32,000 bases of DNA, from the NCBI RefSeq assembly GCF_000253055.1, contig NC_016070.1, positions 840,001-872,000 of the forward strand, written 5' to 3'. The notes below the pieces were generated by a model. The model had not been told where the DNA came from and did not search any database. It worked only from the letters and a program-made list of their open reading frames with translations. The position numbers were made by a program, and so were the translations under genes. Positions 2,129 to 27,104 of the stretch are shown here, one piece after another. Each line of letters starts with the position of its first letter. The stretch's first letter is position 1. The stretch is from Thermoproteus tenax Kra 1 (lineage in GTDB: Archaea > Thermoproteota > Thermoprotei > Thermoproteales > Thermoproteaceae).

Positions 2129-2173
2129 TTTACAACCGAAAATCCCGCCATTTAGGGCGGGGAGCGCGGTCAT
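2129..2173 (+). repeat. Solo copy (a) of the dispersed palindromic repeat: TTACAACCGAAAAT-CCCGCC-ATTTA-GGGCGGGG-AGCGCGGTCAT
   Basis: Positions 2144-2173 match the reverse complement of 13312-13341 at 29 of 30 positions. It lies about 20 nt after the glycoprotein stop and is followed by a T6 run at 2180-2185. Confidence 0.85.
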
Positions 2174-2900: not shown

Positions 2901-2954
2901 GCGACAATATCAGTGGCTATTTTTATAGTGTCTGTATTTCTCTTGACAGGGAGA

Positions 2955-3170
2955 CGGCAAGCTTCGCCCTTTAGGGCGGGGCCGGATTTAGGCTAGCGTC
3001 TATGGCAGAGCAATAAAGAGAGGGGTCTAATAACGCGCTCCATGCTCCAGCTGCAGCACGCTAACCCCAGAGAGTGGCAACGGGCGAGATCCCCATTGTG
3101 GAGGTTCCACATGAGCGTGGAGGGGATCGTAATGTTTTTATCAACATTGCGATGAACGCCTATGAGTCCG
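2955..3170 (+). repeat. Decayed copy (b) of the GC-rich promoter-bearing repeat unit (candidate ncRNA, + strand)
   Basis: It has the palindrome CGCCC-TTTA-GGGCG at 2965-2978, the box GGATTTAGGC at 2984-2993, and the conserved ATGGCAGAG at 3002-3010, which is followed by TAA after 3 sense codons. Positions 3042-3103 are homologous to the reverse complement of 21465-21522. The unit ends in the hairpin AATGTT-TTTATC-AACATT, which includes a T5 run (about 3131-3148). Confidence 0.5.
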
Positions 3171-6345: not shown

Positions 6346-6392
6346 AGGAGAGAATCAGCAAATCAATATTAGCGTTGCGCATAGGTATGACT

Positions 6393-6428
6393 CCTGCCCT
6401 AAAGGGCGAGGCTTTCAGGTGTAATAAC
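6393..6428 (-). repeat. Solo copy (c) of the palindromic repeat in the divergent aminopeptidase/PhoH intergenic region
   Basis: The + strand reads CCTGCCC-TAAA-GGGCGAGG-CTTTCAGGTGTAA. The tail TTCAG(G/T)TGTAA is shared with copies at 13843-13856 and (reverse complement) 2129-2140. It is about 55 nt upstream of the aminopeptidase ATG and directly upstream of the PhoH TATA box AACTTTTAAAC. Confidence 0.75.
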
Positions 6429-11317: not shown

Positions 11318-11497
11318 GTGGAGACAACTGAGGCTTGGCTCTATCTGAGCTTGGAAACTGTTATCGGGATTATAATTTTATCAATAATAGGTATAATAGT
11401 AATAAATATTTTTAAAAATATAAATCAATTATATAATTATATAGAGAATGATATAAAATATATATTAAATACAACAAGATTGATTATAAGGATATGA
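11318..11497 (+). CDS. Small hydrophobic ORF 1 of the AT-rich island (59 aa, not in the ORF track)
   Basis: I translated it by hand: VETTEAWLYLSLETVIGIIILSIIGIIVINIFKNINQLYNYIENDIKYILNTTRLIIRI. It has one TM segment, and its TGA overlaps the next ATG (ATGA at 11494-11497). The start codon is uncertain (GTG 11318 or TTG 11351). Confidence 0.35.
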   Translation: METTEAWLYLSLETVIGIIILSIIGIIVINIFKNINQLYNYIENDIKYILNTTRLIIRI

Positions 11498-11610
11498 GAC
11501 TTCTATATCAAATATTAAAAATAATTTTAATATTATTTGAAATAATAATACTATATGATATACTAATTCAATTTAAAATGCTCTTATCTTTGTTTCGATG
11601 GAGTCCATAA
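11494..11610 (+). CDS. Small hydrophobic ORF 2 of the AT-rich island (38 aa)
   Basis: I translated it by hand: MRLLYQILKIILILFEIIILYDILIQFKMLLSLFRWSP. It overlaps ORF 1 by 4 nt and ORF 3 by 13 nt. Confidence 0.3.
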   Translation: MRLLYQILKIILILFEIIILYDILIQFKMLLSLFRWSP

Positions 11611-11870
11611 CTGAGTTAATCTTTATAATTTTTATATTATTATTTCTATTACTAATCTATTATTTAATTTTAAAATTAATATTTAATATATCATTAATAA
11701 AATATAAATTTATTTTATCAAGATATGCTGTTTGTGGCGCTAACTATACTTTTACTTATTATTCGAATGAGTATAATATCTCTGCGGTCAAGGCGTGTTT
11801 AAAAATTATAGTGTTTTCCAATGGCTCCTACGCTGTTTCAACGGCTTACCTTTATGTGAGATCACGATGA
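11598..11870 (+). CDS. Small membrane-anchored ORF 3 of the AT-rich island (90 aa)
   Basis: It has an N-terminal TM helix (LIFIIFILLFLLLIYYLILKLIF). The Tyr/Ser-rich tail has 2 Cys and four N-x-S/T sequons. A 90-codon open frame in such AT-rich DNA is unexpected by chance. Confidence 0.45.
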   Translation: MESITELIFIIFILLFLLLIYYLILKLIFNISLIKYKFILSRYAVCGANYTFTYYSNEYNISAVKACLKIIVFSNGSYAVSTAYLYVRSR

Positions 11871-12132
11871 AGGTAGATCAACGGATTAAGGCGATCAGAA
11901 TCGTCTAGCTTCTTCACACATCGTCTATCGGCCGGACTTCGTCATTAGGATGCACCGTTTATTCGCCTTAAATTTTTAACTTCTCTTTAAAAATAACGTT
12001 ATTACTATATTAAACTATTATTTTTTATTATATTATTATGATTTAATTTAATTACTAAATAGAAAAATTAATTGATTATTATTTATGATCAAGAATACGT
12101 TAAATTAAAAAATATAGCACAAATTAGGCGCT

Positions 12133-12583: not shown

Positions 12584-13315
12584 GTGGACGAGCTGAGGGA
12601 AGTGGCCGACCTGTTAAATAGATCTAATTGCGCTGTAGCGCTCACTGGTGCCGGCGTCTCGACTCCCAGCGGAATTCCGGACTTTAGAGGACCTCAAGGG
12701 CTCTGGAGAAGAATAGATCCACGGAGGTTCGAGATTGCGTACTTCTATGCGCATCCCGGCGAGGTCTGGAGGTTGTTCGTGGATACGTTTCTTGCTCAAG
12801 CTGAGGCTAAGCCTAACCCTGCTCATCTGGCCTTGGCCGAACTAGAGGCCAAGGGGAAGATCTGTGCGGTGATAACGCAGAACGTCGACGGTCTGCATCA
12901 GAGGGCTGGCTCCAAGAGAGTGATCGAGCTACACGGCTCTTTGCGATATGCAGTATGTACGTCATGCGGCGCAAGATTTCCACTCTCAGAGGTCCTTAAA
13001 GGCCCTATAGACGATGCGCCGAGATGTAGAGTATGTGGCGGCGTGTTGAAGCCAGATGTGGTATTCTTTGGGGAGCCGTTGCCCTACGAGGCTCTACAAG
13101 ATGCAATGATGTTGGCGGAGCTCTCGGATGTATTTATGGCGATCGGAACATCTCTAGCGGTGGCGCCGGCCAATAGGTTGCCGTTAATAGCTAAAAGAAA
13201 GGGGGCAAAGTTGGTGATAATAAACCAAGACCCCACGGAGCTTGACGAATTCGCCGATATTATAATAAGAGGTAAAGTTGAAGAAATCTTGCCGCGCATA
13301 GCGGAGCTGATATGA
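12584..13315 (+). CDS. cobB: NAD-dependent protein deacylase, Sir2 family
   Basis: Motifs present: GAGVSTPSGIPDFRG, TQNVDGLH, ELHGS, and the zinc ribbon CxxC...CxxC (CTSCG...CRVCGG). The GTG start is about 22 nt after the GCATTTTAAAGGC box. The stop codon lies inside repeat copy (d). Confidence 0.93.
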   Translation: MDELREVADLLNRSNCAVALTGAGVSTPSGIPDFRGPQGLWRRIDPRRFEIAYFYAHPGEVWRLFVDTFLAQAEAKPNPAHLALAELEAKGKICAVITQNVDGLHQRAGSKRVIELHGSLRYAVCTSCGARFPLSEVLKGPIDDAPRCRVCGGVLKPDVVFFGEPLPYEALQDAMMLAELSDVFMAIGTSLAVAPANRLPLIAKRKGAKLVIINQDPTELDEFADIIIRGKVEEILPRIAELI

Positions 13316-13876
13316 CCGCGCTCCCCGCCCTAAAGGGCGGGGTTTCTCCTCGTCCACGCCTTCATCGGCATCCAAGATACCTCCGGCGTGAGCTCATTGG
13401 GCATGGGGCCGGGCGGCACGCCTCTATCCCTCTCGGCGTGGACGTGCTGCGTCCGCCTTCGACGTACAGCCCTATCCAGCGCCCGGCCAGCGCCTCCCCA
13501 GGCCTCTGCGGAGGCCTTCGGCGGCCCCAGACGTCGGCTCTGTACTCGCTCAGCCCCTCATACGCCGCGTATTTGGGACAGCCCGCGTAGACCTCCGACG
13601 CGGCCTCCCGGAGCATCCCGGCGGGCCCTCCGATCGCCGTATATCCGCAGTGCCCCTCCCCCGTCCTCCAGGACGCCCTTAGTCTGGGCCGCCCCATCCA
13701 CCGCTGGGCCGCCCCTCGTTGGAGCTCGCCCCCCGCGCGGGGCCCGCCCCTGCTCCTCCCTCTTTTTCTGTCATCTTCGCTAACTTTGCCATGAAAAATA
13801 CGCCAATCGGCTTAAATCCATCCCCCATCCTAAAGGGTGGGGCCTTCAGTTGTAAGCGGTGGATGTAGGAGCCCAT
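13312..13876 (-). repeat. GC-rich repeat unit A (candidate structured ncRNA on the minus strand), bounded by two copies of the palindrome
   Basis: Palindrome (e) is at 13822-13842, the box GGATTTAAGCC at 13819-13809, ATGGCAAAG at 13792-13784, and palindrome (d) at 13323-13342. The 5' ~120 nt is homologous to unit B. Positions 13345-13410 are homologous to 26785-26850. Only broken ORFs are present (37 codons, then a 111-codon ORF in another frame). Confidence 0.55.
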
Positions 13877-14005
13877 CTATATCAAACTCTCCGTAGGACG
13901 CCGGTCTCCACGCCCGGGGCTGTGGCTTCGGGCACACGGCGAGCCCACCTGTGAAGGCCGGCGTCGTGAAAGGGAAGTTGCCGAATGTCCGCTAAATCGA
14001 CTCAT

Positions 14006-14560
14006 TCATTTCGGCTCTAAGGTCGCGTGTTCACAAATTATCTTGAACGGACGCCTTGTCTCCAGCGATCTCTCCACGCTCTCTCTAAGGGCATCTATAT
14101 TTATACAACCTATGGCGCGACCCCCCTCCAATAACTTCAGAGCCTCAGAGGCCAGAAACACGAACTTATCGGCTGCCCCCTCCTGTAGCTTCACATAGGC
14201 GGCAGCCAAAATTATCAGCCCTTGAAGCCGGCCATCTCTGCTCTTTCTCCACAGAGGCTCCAACTCGGCGTGCGCCTCCCAGAACCTCTCCTCGTTGAAC
14301 AGTTGGACAAATCGGGCGATGTCTCCAGACCCTATGCGCTCCTCGTTCGTTATATCGATGATGTAGCGCACAGATCCCAATGTAGTCTCGATCCTCTCCT
14401 TGCCCCATTCTGGATCCACATCGCCTAGTACGAGCTCTATATGTTCTGAGGCCACTCTCACATTCAATACAGGCAAAACGCTCCGGAGCTCTCGCAGAAG
14501 CTTGGGTCTATCGCTCGGCGTATGACCACTATTATCAACTATATATAGATATCTCTTCAT
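14006..14560 (-). CDS. DUF309-domain protein (last gene of the six-gene operon)
   Basis: The C-terminal half (FNEERFWEAHAELEPLWRK...LQGLIILAAAYVKLQEG) matches the DUF309 signature as I remember it. The N-terminal ~80 aa are unassigned. The start overlaps the upstream stop (TAATG). Confidence 0.65.
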   Translation of the reverse strand: MKRYLYIVDNSGHTPSDRPKLLRELRSVLPVLNVRVASEHIELVLGDVDPEWGKERIETTLGSVRYIIDITNEERIGSGDIARFVQLFNEERFWEAHAELEPLWRKSRDGRLQGLIILAAAYVKLQEGAADKFVFLASEALKLLEGGRAIGCINIDALRESVERSLETRRPFKIICEHATLEPK

Positions 14561-17628: not shown

Positions 17629-18312
17629 ATGCGCGCTCTGATCCTCGCCGGAGGTTTCGGCAAGAGGCTCGCCCCCCTCACCAACGAGGTACCCAAGCCA
17701 CTCGTGCCCGTGGCCGGGAAGCCCATCCTCGTCAGACAGATCGAGTGGCTGAGGGAACAAGGAGTGACCGACTTTGTCGTGGCCGTCGGCTATCTGCGCC
17801 ACAAGGTCTTCGAGGCGCTGGGCGATGGGAGGAAGTATGGAGTGAGGATATTCTACAGCGTCGAGGAGGAGCCCCTCGGCACAGGGGGCGCCATAAAGAA
17901 CGCGGCGCCCTTTCTGGAGGACGACGTGTTCCTGGTCACCAACGGCGATGTGTTGACCAATCTGCGCGTGGAGCCCCTACTGAGGGCGCTCGAGGGCGCC
18001 GACGCCGCCATAGCCCTCGTCCCCCTCAGAAGCCCCTACGGCGTAGTGGAGATAGACGGCGAGGGGCGCGTGCTGGCCTTCAGAGAGAAGCCCGTGCTGG
18101 AGCACTACATCAACGCCGGCGTCTACGCCATGAGGAGGGAGGCGCTCAAGGATCTCCCCGACAGAGGCAACATAGAGGAGACGTTGTTCCCCAGATTGGC
18201 CGAGAGGAGGAGGCTGAGGGCCGTGGTCTATAAAGACGCCTTCTGGCGCTCCATAGACACCCTCAAGGATTTAGAGGAGGCTGAGAAGATGTTGAGCGAT
18301 GGAAAATCTTGA
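17629..18312 (+). CDS. Sugar-1-phosphate nucleotidyltransferase
   Basis: [32 protein letters not shown] is the classic NTP-transferase N-terminus, and EEPLGTGGA is also present. The TATA box GTATATAAAAATAG lies about 25 nt upstream. GTG 17623 is an alternative start. Confidence 0.88.
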
Positions 18313-18937
18313 AGACCTACTCCTGAAATACGCCTTATTGAACGCAGTTAAGTACGGAGGCAGAGCCGACGCTAAGGCAGTGATGTCTAAGTTGATGGCC
18401 GAAAGAGCGGATCTGAGGCCAAGGGCGCGCGAGATAAAAGAGCTTGTGGAACAGCTGGTGGCCAAGGTAAACGCCATGAGCCCTCAGGAGCAGTATACGC
18501 TCTTGGCATCGCGCTGGCCTGAGGCTCTGGAGGAGAGGAGGCCCAGGGAGGAGAAAAGGCCTGGAATCGACTCGCTTCCCGCGCTTCCAAACGCTGAGAG
18601 GGGCGTCGTGGTCCGCTTCGCACCCAACCCAGACTTCGTCCTACATCTCGGCAGCGCGCGGCCGGCCGTGCTCAACTACGCCTACAAGCTGAAATACGGA
18701 GGCAAGTTCATACTTAGGTTCGAAGACACAGATCCCAAGATAAAGAGGCCGTTGATAACGGAGGAGGTTAACGCCTATGAGGCAATAAGGGAAGATCTGA
18801 GGTGGCTCGGCGTGAAGTGGGATGAAGAGTACATTCAATCGCAGCGTATGGAGATATACTACGAATATGCGAGAAGGCTCATCGAGTTAGCGGAGCCTAC
18901 GTGGACACTTGCAAGACCGAGGAGTGGCGCAAGCTGA
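18299..18937 (+). CDS. gltX: Glutamyl-tRNA synthetase, N-terminal segment (frame 1 of a frameshifted gene)
   Basis: It has the archaeal GluRS N-terminal helical domain plus the class I catalytic start [21 protein letters not shown] (HIGH-type HLGS). Homology ends at ...YARRLIEL, and 15 non-homologous codons follow before the stop. Confidence 0.85.
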
Positions 18938-20019
18938 GGAACGCGGGTAAGGCGTGCCCCCACAGAGGGCAGTCGGTGGAGGAGAACTTAGAGCTCTGGG
19001 ACAAAATGCTGAGGGGGGACTTCAGAGAGGGCGAGTCGGTGCTCAGAGTGAAGACAGACTTGACGCACCCAGACCCCAGCGTGAGGGACTGGGTGGCTTT
19101 CAGGATCATAGACGTCGAGAGGAACCCGCACCCTCTAGTCGGAGCTAAATATCACGTGTGGCCCACTTACAACTTCGCCGTATCTATCGACGACCATCTA
19201 ATGGGTGTGACGCACGTGCTCCGCGCGCAAGAACACAGCGTGAACACAGTAAAACAGTCCTTCGTCTTCAAACACTTCGGCTGGACCCAGCCGGTGACTA
19301 TACACTTCGGCAGACTGAAGGTGGAGGGCGGATCTCTCAGCAAGTCTAAACTGAAGGCCCTTAAGTTGCGATACGACGATATAACTATGCCGACCTTGGC
19401 AGGGCTCAGGAGCCGCGGGATCCAGCCGGAGGCAATATGGGAGCTCATACTGAGCGTTGGGATCAAGCCCTCCGACGCGACAGTATCCCTTGCTAACCTC
19501 TTCTCTATCAATAGAAAGATTTTGGACCCGAAGGCGGACAGATATATGTTTGTCCCCGAACCCGTGAAGTTGGTTATCAACCTGCCCAAGAGGATCGTTG
19601 CGAAGATACCGGTGCACCCCAGCTTCCCGGAGAGGGGCCATAGAGAGTACGAGCTAGGCCCCGGGGAGGTCTCACTGTATATCTCCAGGAAGGACGCCGA
19701 ACTAGGCTCCTTTAGGCTAATGGAGTTGGCCAACGTAGTTGTGCGCAGAAAAGAGGGAGATGTATACTACGGAGAGGTGGTCGGATATACGATAGACGAG
19801 GCGCGCGAGGCGAAGATGCCCATAATCCAGTGGACGCCCGATAATTCAAGGGAGGCGGTCGTGATAAGGCCTGTGGCCGCCGGCAAGAAGGCCGTCGAGA
19901 GAGGCCTCATAGAGCCTGGCGCCGAGACTCTGAGGGAGGGCGATATAGTACAGTTCCTTAGATATGGATTTGTCAAATTGGGCTTCCAGAGACACTATGG
20001 AGTTCATATATATCCACGA
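18892..20019 (+). CDS. gltX: Glutamyl-tRNA synthetase, remainder (second frame); no stop codon before the DUF354 ATG
   Basis: [25 protein letters not shown] continues the GluRS sequence. [26 protein letters not shown] and an LSKSK (KMSKS-type) motif are present, with the C-terminal [11 protein letters not shown]. This frame is open from 18826. The listed ORF 18901..21000 continues in frame into the next gene. Confidence 0.85.
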
Positions 20020-21000
20020 ATGAGGGCTCTTTTCGACGCTCTTACTCCGAAACAAGCAAGGATCGCAGCAATCCTAAAGCGGGAGGGCGGCCTACAGCTG
20101 ACGATCACATGTAGGGAGTACTACCATCTGAGGGACATGTTGGAGCAATACAAAGTCGACTACATCTGCATAGGTAGGTACGGGGAGACGACCGAGGAGA
20201 AGTTGGTCGAGGGGCTCAAAAGACAGCTCCAGATGGTCGAGATAATGAGGGGCTTGGACGGAGTAGTGTCCTTCCCGAGCCCCGATGCCGTAAGGACCGC
20301 GTTTGGCCTCGGGAAGAAGTCTGTGGTATTGAACGACACGCCGCATGCCTATCACGCCAATTCGCTGACTATACCGCTCTCCGATGCGCTGATAGCGCCG
20401 TCCGCGATACCGCAAGACGCATGGAGGCGTTATTGTCCCAAGAAAGTGATGACTTTCGACGGCGTGTTTGAGTATATGTGGACGTCGAGACATACCCCCA
20501 ACTTAGAGAGCGTGAGGAAGTTGGGCCTGGAGCCAGGCAGCTACGTGGTCTTTAGACCCGAGGAGGCCAAGGCGGCGTACTACCAGTGGAACAACGTCCA
20601 GCTTAGGGCCAAGCTAGTCGAACTTGTCAAGGAGATGGGCTACGTTGTGGTCAATATCCCCAGATATCCAGACCAAGTGATCGAGGGAGCTATAAATTTA
20701 ATAAAGGCGGTGGACCACTTAGATCTAGCGTATTATGCCGCAGCGGTCATCACAGGTGGGCTGACTATGTCGACGGAGGCCGCTCTGTTAGGCACGCCCG
20801 CCGTTTCGTACTTTCCCGGCGACGTGTATATAGATAGGTATCTGGAGAGGGCCGGGGCCCCACTCCTTAGGTGCTCTTCAATGGACGAGTGCATCCATGT
20901 TGTCAAGAAGGCGTTAAGTATGGGCAGAGCGCCCCCGCCCAAGATGGAGGATCCGCTCAAGGCGATCGTCGCGGCGGTTCAGGAAATATTCGGAGGATAA
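20020..21000 (+). CDS. DUF354 family protein (GT-B glycosyltransferase-like)
   Basis: [32 protein letters not shown] resembles the DUF354 N-terminus (MKI.FDI..P..V..F...I..L...GHEV.ITAR) as I remember it. At 326 aa it fits the family size. ATG 20020 is in frame with the upstream gltX segment. Confidence 0.65.
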
Positions 21001-21440: not shown

Positions 21441-21826
21441 TCGCCCATCTCTGTTACCTCCAGACTGCCCACACCGTGGGGGCCTCGGCCGTTGCCCGGG
21501 GTTAGTGGGCCGCGGCTGGGGCAGGCATTGCGGCGTCCCCCGCCGGGGCCATCTTGCGTTTGAGTTTGCCCCCGCGCGGCGCCCGCCCTTGCCCCCTTTT
21601 TCTTGGCCCTCTTCACAAGCTCTGCCATGAAAATAGATGGCTTAAGACCTACCCCATCCTAAAGGGCGGGGCTTGCTGTTTGTACTGTCAGCCACATCCC
21701 CGGCCCTGGGGGTACGGCCGATCAGCCGCGCCCGTGCGCCGGGGCACGGCCGGCCTCCTCCGCCCCGCCCTCGCGGCGTCTGGCGGGGGCGGGCCAAAAA
21801 TCTGACCCCGGGGGAGGGCCGGGACA
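21441..21826 (-). repeat. GC-rich repeat unit B: one 5' module plus the tail of a second unit, joined at palindrome (f)
   Basis: The palindrome CCCCATCC-TAAA-GGGCGGGG is at 21652-21671, the box GGTCTTAAGCC at 21649-21639, and ATGGCAGAG at 21628-21620. Positions 21620-21510 are homologous to unit A and 21465-21522 to unit b. Positions 21740-21800 resemble the CCTCCTCG plus stem-loop 3' module of units A and C. Confidence 0.55.
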
Positions 21827-26721: not shown

Positions 26722-26940
26722 GTGAACCGTCTATCCCTAGGCGCCCACCGCTGATTGCAGCCGGCCGCTCGTGCCCAGGCGCTTCCTCCTCGCCCGCGCC
26801 TTCGCTGACAGCCCGGCTGCCTCCGGCGCGGGGCCATCGGGCATGGGGGCAACGGCCCTTTTCCAGAGGCAGGCCCGATCGGGCCGCTCGTGGGACGCCG
26901 CCCCTCGCCGCTGTAGATACACGCGTTTAAGCCCTCCGCC
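26722..26940 (-). repeat. GC-rich repeat unit C (3' stem-loop module of the family; promoter module unclear)
   Basis: Positions 26785-26850 align ungapped with 13345-13410 at 48 of 66 positions by my hand count. A nested stem-loop has identical geometry in both copies. A TTTAAGCC box at 26926-26933 reads in the opposite orientation to units A and B. Confidence 0.5.
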
Positions 26941-27104
26941 TGCGCCAGAACAGAATTTTCTCAACGCCTCGGGTCGCCGGTCCCTAAGGAGCTCGCGGTG
27001 CGCCTGGGTTGTTCAGCGTAGCTTGGACACCCTCAGACCCCTCGGACGAAGCCAGTGTAGCAAAAGAGGAGCCACAGCTATAAAGGCCGGTATACTGTGT
27101 CTCA

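Follow-up and report, generated by a model that had tools for sequence, protein, structure and literature searches.

The usual scaffold of the omega-RNAs or reRNAs that accompany TnpB extends for about 100-150 nt from the transposon boundary. A hairpin of 8 bp closed by a UUCA or UUUA loop was described by Gomes-Filho et al. as the right-end tetraloop of IS1341-type (tnpB) elements, being common to tnpB sense-overlapping transcripts, PATE-derived RNAs and the HgcC family (PMC4615843). HgcC RNAs of T. kodakarensis start at internal TSSs within transposase genes, and some of the copies are orphan (PMC4247193). A possible k-turn has been reported for RAGATH-18, another TnpB-associated RNA (PMC11061315).

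Two copies of a repeat, named A and C, were analysed here in a 32,000-nt stretch of the Thermoproteus tenax Kra 1 genome (hereafter the window). They do not represent a new RNA class but a known kind of element: very probably, both are what is left, now orphaned, of the right ends of insertion elements of the IS200/IS605 family (IS1341-type, with a tnpB gene), and the stem-loop would be a module of the right-end RNA of these elements. As with the omega-RNA or reRNA of ISDra2 and of the archaeal SisTnpB1, the module has the orientation of the tnpB sense strand, shares its last codons, runs to the right end, is structured and covaries, and it is located within about 100 nt (copy A) to about 150 nt (the family of metagenome homologs described below) of the boundary. 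Unlike in those systems, there is no tnpB partner in the window and the sequence is unrelated to the characterised scaffolds.

A repeated module with a nested stem-loop

An earlier note on this DNA had aligned positions 13345-13410 with 26785-26850 without gaps, counting 48/66 identities, and had placed the same nested stems in both copies. The recount gave exactly 48/66, and all elements were found where they had been placed: the outer stems CACGCC/GGCGTG (13355-60/13385-90) and CGCGCC/GGCGCG (26795-800/26825-30), the internal loops TTCATC or TTCGCT with TCC, and the inner stems GGCATC-CAA-GATACC and GACAGC-CCG-GCTGCC. The pair was also recovered as repeat D5 in a repeat search of the window (74% identity, 13343-13408/26783-26848) and by sensitive blastn within the window (E = 6e-8). 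No further 66-mer with at least 38/66 identities was detected on either strand of the whole 32-kb window, and the pattern CGCCGGAGG-N16-GAAGGCG had exact matches only at copies A and C, a count reached by 0/100 shuffles. The features referred to in the text are the following:

13311-14032, unstranded: unit A, a lineage-specific insertion of about 720 bp between convergent DUF309 and SIR2 genes, with synteny in L003, L004 and L006
13340-13412, minus strand: copy A, 73-nt module, apparently the former last ~24 tnpB codons PMPNELTPEVSWMPMKAWTRRN; it holds the nested stem-loop and is part of alignment A6
13385-13392, minus strand: copy A outer stem, 5' strand CUCACGCC, pairing with 13353-13360; NC helix of the putative k-turn
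13353-13360, minus strand: copy A outer stem, 3' strand GGCGUGGA
13367-13381, minus strand: copy A inner hairpin GGUAUC-UUG-GAUGCC, C helix; the portion aligned to helix 1 of the Rfam HgcC model
13382-13384, minus strand: copy A GGA, putative k-turn positions 3n, 2n and 1n; G30 and A31 invariant in A6
13361-13366, minus strand: copy A GAU bulge and GAA, putative k-turn positions L1-L3 and 1b-3b; A51 and A52 invariant, G50 in 11/12
13323-13342, minus strand: copy A right-end-type hairpin CCCCGCCC-UUUA-GGGCGGGG, with TAG in the loop (13330-13332)
13312-13322, minus strand: copy A right-end tail AGCGCGGUCAU, where similarity to the copy at 2140-2176 stops
26722-27104, unstranded: unit C, a 383-bp intergenic stretch that measures 29 bp in the relative L004
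26780-26852, minus strand: copy C, 73-nt module PMPDGPAPEAAGLSAKARARRK, found by tblastn of P0021 and 78% identical over 73 nt to the metagenome homolog L121
26825-26832, minus strand: copy C outer stem, 5' strand CCCGCGCC, pairing with 26793-26800
26793-26800, minus strand: copy C outer stem, 3' strand GGCGCGGG
26807-26821, minus strand: copy C inner hairpin GGCAGC-CGG-GCUGUC
26801-26806, minus strand: copy C AGC bulge and GAA, opposite GGA at 26822-26824
26727-26779, minus strand: copy C 3' part, a GC-rich hairpin and then CUAGGGAUAGACGG, with a presumed boundary

Further pairs could be added to the outer stem, which then measures 8 bp in copy C and 7 bp in copy A. When the isolated 40-nt minus-strand segments were folded, copy A adopted the proposed structure (-18.1 kcal/mol, z -3.4), and copy C reached -24.8 kcal/mol (z -2.1) with one extra pair inside the internal loop of its MFE structure. 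Within contexts of 68-121 nt or 156-176 nt, the energies were unremarkable, the z-scores were non-significant and both copies took other MFE folds. As thermodynamics alone is weak, support for the fold comes from the comparison of homologs. In copy A, a distal GUCCACGCC (13435-13443) constitutes a longer alternative partner for GGCGUGGAC of the outer-stem 3' strand; this alternative pairing was preferred by the MFE in the 156-nt context and is absent from the other copies.

Relation of the repeat to the 3' end of tnpB

Translation of the minus strand gave PMP..PE......K...RR(K/N) in both copies. A profile built from the translated copies A and C and L121 detected eight short ORFs with E-values of 1e-16 to 1e-10, and in intact relatives the tail, ..PMPxxPxPEVAVLxxKEWARRK.., makes up the last ~25 residues of TnpB. 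In P0009 and P0010, the tail, ...GPVPLAPMPSEPAPEVAVLTVKEWARRKSLDAINKHELIKMSI, is directly preceded by KCPRCGFRAGRD(I/V)IA..NL, in which the second CxxC of the TnpB zinc finger and the RuvC-III motif are recognised; the sole Pfam match of these ORFs was the C-terminal end of the Cas12f1-like TNB domain PF07282. P0021 (132 aa) similarly shows a zinc finger and a RuvC-III motif directly upstream of the tail. It is similar to genes annotated as TnpB in 309 plasmids (best E 7e-11) and comes from a contig, L146, with RuvC-I/II-like motifs upstream. In an exhaustive HMMER search, the full-length protein P0033 (415 aa) scored 108 bits with the NCBIfam model NF040570, guided_TnpB (cut-off 100), and its C-terminus, ...PMPYDPAPEVAVLPMREWARRKSLDATNNHELMRVSI, is the same tail as in the translated copies.

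When P0021 was compared with the window by tblastn, the two best hits were copy A (13419-13339, E 7.5e-4) and copy C (26853-26761, E 5.6e-4); no TnpB sequence was detected beyond these copies and none was recognisable upstream of either. Pfam scans of the window ORFs revealed neither tnpB nor tnpA, the S. solfataricus TnpBs had no significant tblastn hit in the window and no Pfam family was matched by the long ORFs, regarded as spurious, in units A, B and C. By these similarities, copies A and C are homologous to the 3' end of tnpB, on its sense strand. As the repeat corresponds to what was the 3' end of a now decayed tnpB, part of the conservation reflects a former coding constraint.

Further relatives were sought with models and patterns. 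The covariance model R1 scored copy A with 76.8 bits (E 6e-19) and copy C with 82.9 bits (E 1e-20), values that are no independent evidence because both copies are among the sequences from which R1 was built; it detected no third copy in the window and none in the syntenic relatives. In a metagenome scan with CCGGAGGN{14,18}GAAGGN6CGAGGAG, a pattern that was too loose, L121 was the sole true homolog among the matches listed, the others being chance matches in GC-rich coding DNA. The pattern CCCATGCCCNATGN{5,9}CGCCGGAGG matched genome contigs only 5 times, in bacteria and at chance level. No relative was found by viral pattern scans and a viral protein-locus search, and blastn of the metagenome family against plasmids gave no match. 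Logan contigs from this organism break off within the hairpin, as is expected of a repeat.

Right ends in the window

No Rfam family matched at gathering thresholds, and no tRNAs were detected. HgcC (RF00062) showed a weak match to the minus strand of copy A (13304-13383; 23.3 bits, E 0.004) and no match to copy C. Two landmarks of the HgcC model are present in copy A, namely the inner hairpin followed by GAUGA at the 5' side and, 10 nt downstream of the outer stem, the 8-bp UUUA hairpin followed by GAG.G.GGUCA. HgcC and sot0042 (RF02656) are the models of the sotRNAs of Halobacterium and Thermococcales, and both of them match annotated 3' ends of S. solfataricus tnpB. Unlike in HgcC, the central ~60 nt of the model are missing, and neither copy C nor the metagenome family is matched. 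Membership in RF00062 was rejected, with copy A below the gathering score of 50 bits and copy C unmatched.

The right-end hairpin of copy A continues with GAGCGCGGUCA and bears the TAG stop of the former tnpB frame in its loop, so that in this frame copy A reads ...PMPNELTPEVSWMPMKAWTRRNPAL*. By blastn against plasmids, the hairpin and its tail matched sequence beneath an annotated TnpB gene of S. solfataricus pMGB1. Both tnpB genes of this plasmid end ...CTCGCCCTT(T/C)AGGGCGGGGAGGAGGTCAG, and the first has its TAG stop in the hairpin loop (...KGTLAL*). Their ends, annotated as IS605 right ends, were matched by the Rfam models sot0042 (E 4e-10) and HgcC (E 1e-6 and 5e-4). The layout of copy A, an 8-bp UUUA hairpin with the stop in the loop, is that of the pMGB1 tnpB ends. 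Inside the window, the copy at 2140-2176 is 92% identical to the copy A hairpin plus GAGCGCGGTCAT up to GGTCAT and divergent beyond. Copy A thus stops at a transposon right end with a subterminal hairpin. The right-end-like tetraloop (8-bp stem, UUUA loop) is present in copy A and absent from copy C, for which a transposon boundary is presumed at the terminal CUAGGGAUAGACGG, a sequence that resembles the terminal CUAGGGACAAACGG of the metagenome family and lies 5 nt from a methyltransferase stop codon.

Six right-end hairpins were located in the window, all of them intergenic, at 2144-2163 (plus), 2963-2982 (plus), 6391-6410 (minus), 13322-13341 (minus), 13822-13841 (minus) and 21651-21670 (minus). 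In each of them the loop contains a TAG in frame with a TnpB-like ending, ..(T/S/N/G)(P/L/F)(A/T)(L/I)*. Six solo IS200/IS605 right ends per 32 kb is an unusually dense scatter.

A second repeat family was also observed, comprising 13697-13851, 21536-21680 and, on the opposite strand, 2944-3100 (73% identity, E 3e-18). Its layout consists of a right-end hairpin, a TATA-like GGATTTAAGCC and the ATG of short Lys/Gly-rich ORFs (MAKLAKMTEKEGG.., MAELVKRAKKKG..), and it may be the start of another decayed element. Elsewhere in the window, an AT-rich island at 11318-12130 (~35% GC vs. 55% elsewhere) is rich in short AT repeats and encodes two small hydrophobic proteins of 59 and 90 aa, with small ORFs being present there in the relatives too. 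The Glu/Gln-tRNA synthetase is apparently split into the overlapping ORFs 18299-18937 and 18901-21000, the latter continuing with a DUF354 domain for which relatives have a gene of its own; this arrangement may be a frameshift, a fusion or an assembly error.

Insertion context of both copies

Units A and C are lineage-specific insertions relative to the syntenic relatives, and both are flanked by housekeeping genes. In three of these relatives, the tails of DUF309 and SIR2 overlap each other. Next to unit A, SIR2 is shortened by ~9 C-terminal residues (13304-13315), with its TGA stop (13313-13315, plus strand) inside the terminal GGTCAT of the element, and DUF309 is longer by 8 residues, EHATLEPK (14006-14032). 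Both neighbour genes were re-terminated by the insertion.

The members of the metagenome family are mostly deletion derivatives, in which a deletion of variable extent separates a conserved left end with a TATA box from the tnpB tail that holds the stem-loop, and this tail is followed by a hairpin of 12 bp and the boundary ...CUAGGGACAAACGG; left and right ends are joined with an internal deletion in L140, L141, L142 and L145. This joining of a TATA-bearing left end to the tnpB tail and right end is as in the PATE/MITE-like IS200/IS605 derivatives of Haloquadratum and Halobacterium, from which the window units differ in having no recognisable left end: the left end of the family was not found in units A and C (all z < 2.3), and a resemblance between it and the TATA region of unit C, noticed by eye, was rejected on the same scores. 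Among the metagenome contigs, L137 carries an intact serine-recombinase and TnpB (IS607-type) element (918-2712) about 1.3 kb upstream of the family remnant, and in L136 and L142 the family left end is closely preceded by right-end hairpins in reverse orientation.

This context bears on whether the orphan copies have been domesticated, i.e., whether they are independently transcribed small RNAs, with a k-turn that binds L7Ae and with 3' ends, where the guide once lay, antisense to the 3' ends of the convergent SIR2 and methyltransferase genes and regulating them. A convergent gene end does face both copies, and each has a TATA-like box upstream of it on the minus strand, GGATTTAAGCC around 13810 and CCTTTATAGC around 27070, but a position at a gene end is expected anyway of a tolerated insertion. 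Pairing is perfect in both copies despite 10/15 differences in the inner hairpin, while the flanking tnpB has decayed beyond recognition; however, the compensatory differences could predate the insertions, and A and C may stem from two active subfamilies. Precedents exist in the expression of orphan HgcC RNAs in T. kodakarensis (PMC4247193) and in the altered growth of Halobacterium upon overexpression of a PATE-derived RNA (PMC4615843). With two copies only in 32 kb, and no others found by the covariance model, domestication is considered improbable.

Conservation and covariation of the fold

The two copies were aligned with ten metagenome homologs (L121, L136-L146), giving alignment A6 (12 sequences, 73 columns, ungapped), and pairing was scored over 168 cells for the structure proposed in the earlier note, with its outer stem extended to 8 bp. 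Standard pairs were formed in 97.6% of the stem cells, compared to 35-54% when the partners were slid by 1-3 columns. Two-sided changes were detected at 4 pairs (8 cells); for instance, at column pair 26/55 nine sequences have U-A, both window copies G-C and L146 C-G. The covariation score (0.352) was above those of all 500 shuffles (mean 0.236), and RNAalifold recovered the inner stem and five outer pairs without being given a structure. On the other side, a G.A mismatch appears at inner pair 2 in three sequences, the independent compensatory events are few (~5-6) and, because the homologs were found through a peptide search, the sample favours conserved open-frame copies.

The alignment contains 22 G.U cells, due to which the complementary strand pairs in only 85.1% of the cells. 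Therefore, the structured strand is the tnpB-sense strand, that is, the minus strand of the window.

These data support the presence of a conserved secondary structure with covariation in the module. The nested stem-loop that had been proposed from copies A and C was thus borne out when ten homologs were added, their stems being preserved far above the slid controls, and so was the choice of the minus strand, which had been made from the wobble pairs of both copies.

Since intact relatives have the stretch in the TnpB reading frame, conservation could also be purely at the protein level, with the C-terminal tail of TnpB as its object and the stems as a by-product. In agreement with this, the variable columns of the non-window sequences lean to the third codon position (12 vs. 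5 and 6), and the invariant GA and GAA sit in conserved Glu and Lys codons. Nevertheless, two-sided changes preserve pairing even where they alter the protein. At pair 28/53, a C to U change replaces Pro by Leu and is matched by a synonymous G to A change of the partner (AAG to AAA), so that pairing was preserved at the expense of the amino acid; at pair 26/55, the change of the partner replaces Glu by Ala or Gly. As the two-sided changes at these pairs include non-synonymous ones, coding does not account for the pairing. Moreover, a by-product would not explain the fall of the slid controls to 35-54% paired, nor the perfect pairing of the window copies, in which codon positions show no bias (10/10/14) and about half of the tail residues differ from the family. 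A purely protein-level explanation is thus very unlikely, and the comparison of homologs instead depicts the nested stem-loop as a real, conserved fold, probably of the guide-RNA scaffold overlapping the tnpB end.

A putative k-turn in the internal loop

In RNA order, the module consists of the outer helix, GGA, the inner hairpin, three variable bases, GAA and the outer helix again. The core of the H. marismortui Kt-7 is GGA opposite NNN-GAA. This consensus, with the hairpin as C helix, is found in 11/12 sequences of A6, in which G30, A31, A51 and A52 never vary, G50 is kept in 11/12 and the closing pair of the C helix is C=G in 11/12. The homolog L141 has A in place of G50, a synonymous substitution by which the key G.A pair is lost. 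As in Kt-7-type k-turns and archaeal L7Ae sites, a C helix closed by C=G is followed by a 3-nt bulge and then by G.A and A.G, with 3b.3n being A.G in the window copies; unlike in them, one homolog has no 1b G, and the likeness is one of sequence pattern alone. With that reading, the internal loop fits a canonical k-turn (a 3-nt bulge followed by tandem G.A/A.G), which makes the resemblance stronger than the loose one that had been put forward as a speculation. The consensus of HgcC shows the same GA-hairpin-GAUGA layout as the module.

L7Ae is part of C/D, H/ACA and RNase P particles, and its binding to the putative k-turn of the module is plausible. A further step would be that the k-turn is functional, with L7Ae as an integral subunit of the TnpB-omega-RNA particle in this archaeal clade; upon loss of tnpB, a small RNA made of the k-turn module and the right end would survive in complex with L7Ae, and its former guide segment would be antisense to the 3' end of a convergent host gene (SIR2, methyltransferase). 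This extended proposal is rather unlikely. The reRNA of an IS607 TnpB that derives from RAGATH-18 is also a TnpB-associated right-end RNA with a possible k-turn (PMC11061315), but it is bacterial and of other sequence and fold, and the window copies gave no Rfam match to it.

Other RNA classes were considered for the module and rejected. For a box C/D sRNA, copy A offers CCGAUGA and copy C CAGCGAA, without a D box to pair and without a match at Rfam gathering thresholds. For an H/ACA sRNA, the 3' flanks ACGAGGAGAAAC and GCGAGGAGGAAG lack ACA, there is no internal pocket and no Rfam match was obtained. SRP RNA, RNase P RNA and tRNA were excluded by the Rfam and tRNA scans.

Known recognition by TnpA needs only a subterminal hairpin and a guide tetranucleotide, which counts against a role of the fold as ssDNA, namely as an extra right-end hairpin for this transposase during transposition. 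Such a role is scarcely credible: although IS200/IS605 transposition employs strand-specific ssDNA end hairpins (PMC4615843), DNA hairpins tolerate G.T wobbles and no more than ~10 nt separate the copy A module from the right-end hairpin, the module of the metagenome family is ~75 nt from the boundary, behind a 12-bp hairpin, and a motif of RNA is seen in the 3-nt bulge and the conserved tandem G.A/A.G.

Discussion

Under the preferred interpretation, that of orphaned right-end fragments of tnpB-carrying elements, the stretch would have a double use in intact relatives, encoding the last ~25 residues of TnpB and forming, on the same strand, a right-end RNA of the omega-RNA/reRNA/sotRNA/HgcC type. 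This RNA would overlap the 3' end of tnpB, scaffold the TnpB protein and stop at the transposon boundary. In the predicted module, an outer helix of 8 bp is joined to a 6-bp hairpin with a triloop through an asymmetric loop (3/6 nt) that holds the tandem G.A/A.G; this fold probably acts in the RNA as a binding scaffold for TnpB and possibly for L7Ae. Selection for pairing would have been exerted mainly while the parent elements were active, and the window copies would now be relics, perhaps still transcribed, perhaps not.

Thus, a GC-rich repeat that resembled a new structured RNA is explained as transposon debris, the scaffold of a TnpB right-end guide RNA. TnpB elements have peppered the intergenic regions of this archaeon, with six right-end hairpins in 32 kb and one insertion that re-terminated SIR2. 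The family defines a TnpB/omega-RNA clade that is missed by the current Rfam models, and offers a clean example of a single stretch under protein and RNA-structure constraint together. If true, the putative k-turn of this archaeal omega-RNA would be relevant to the reconstitution or engineering of TnpB editors from thermophilic archaea.
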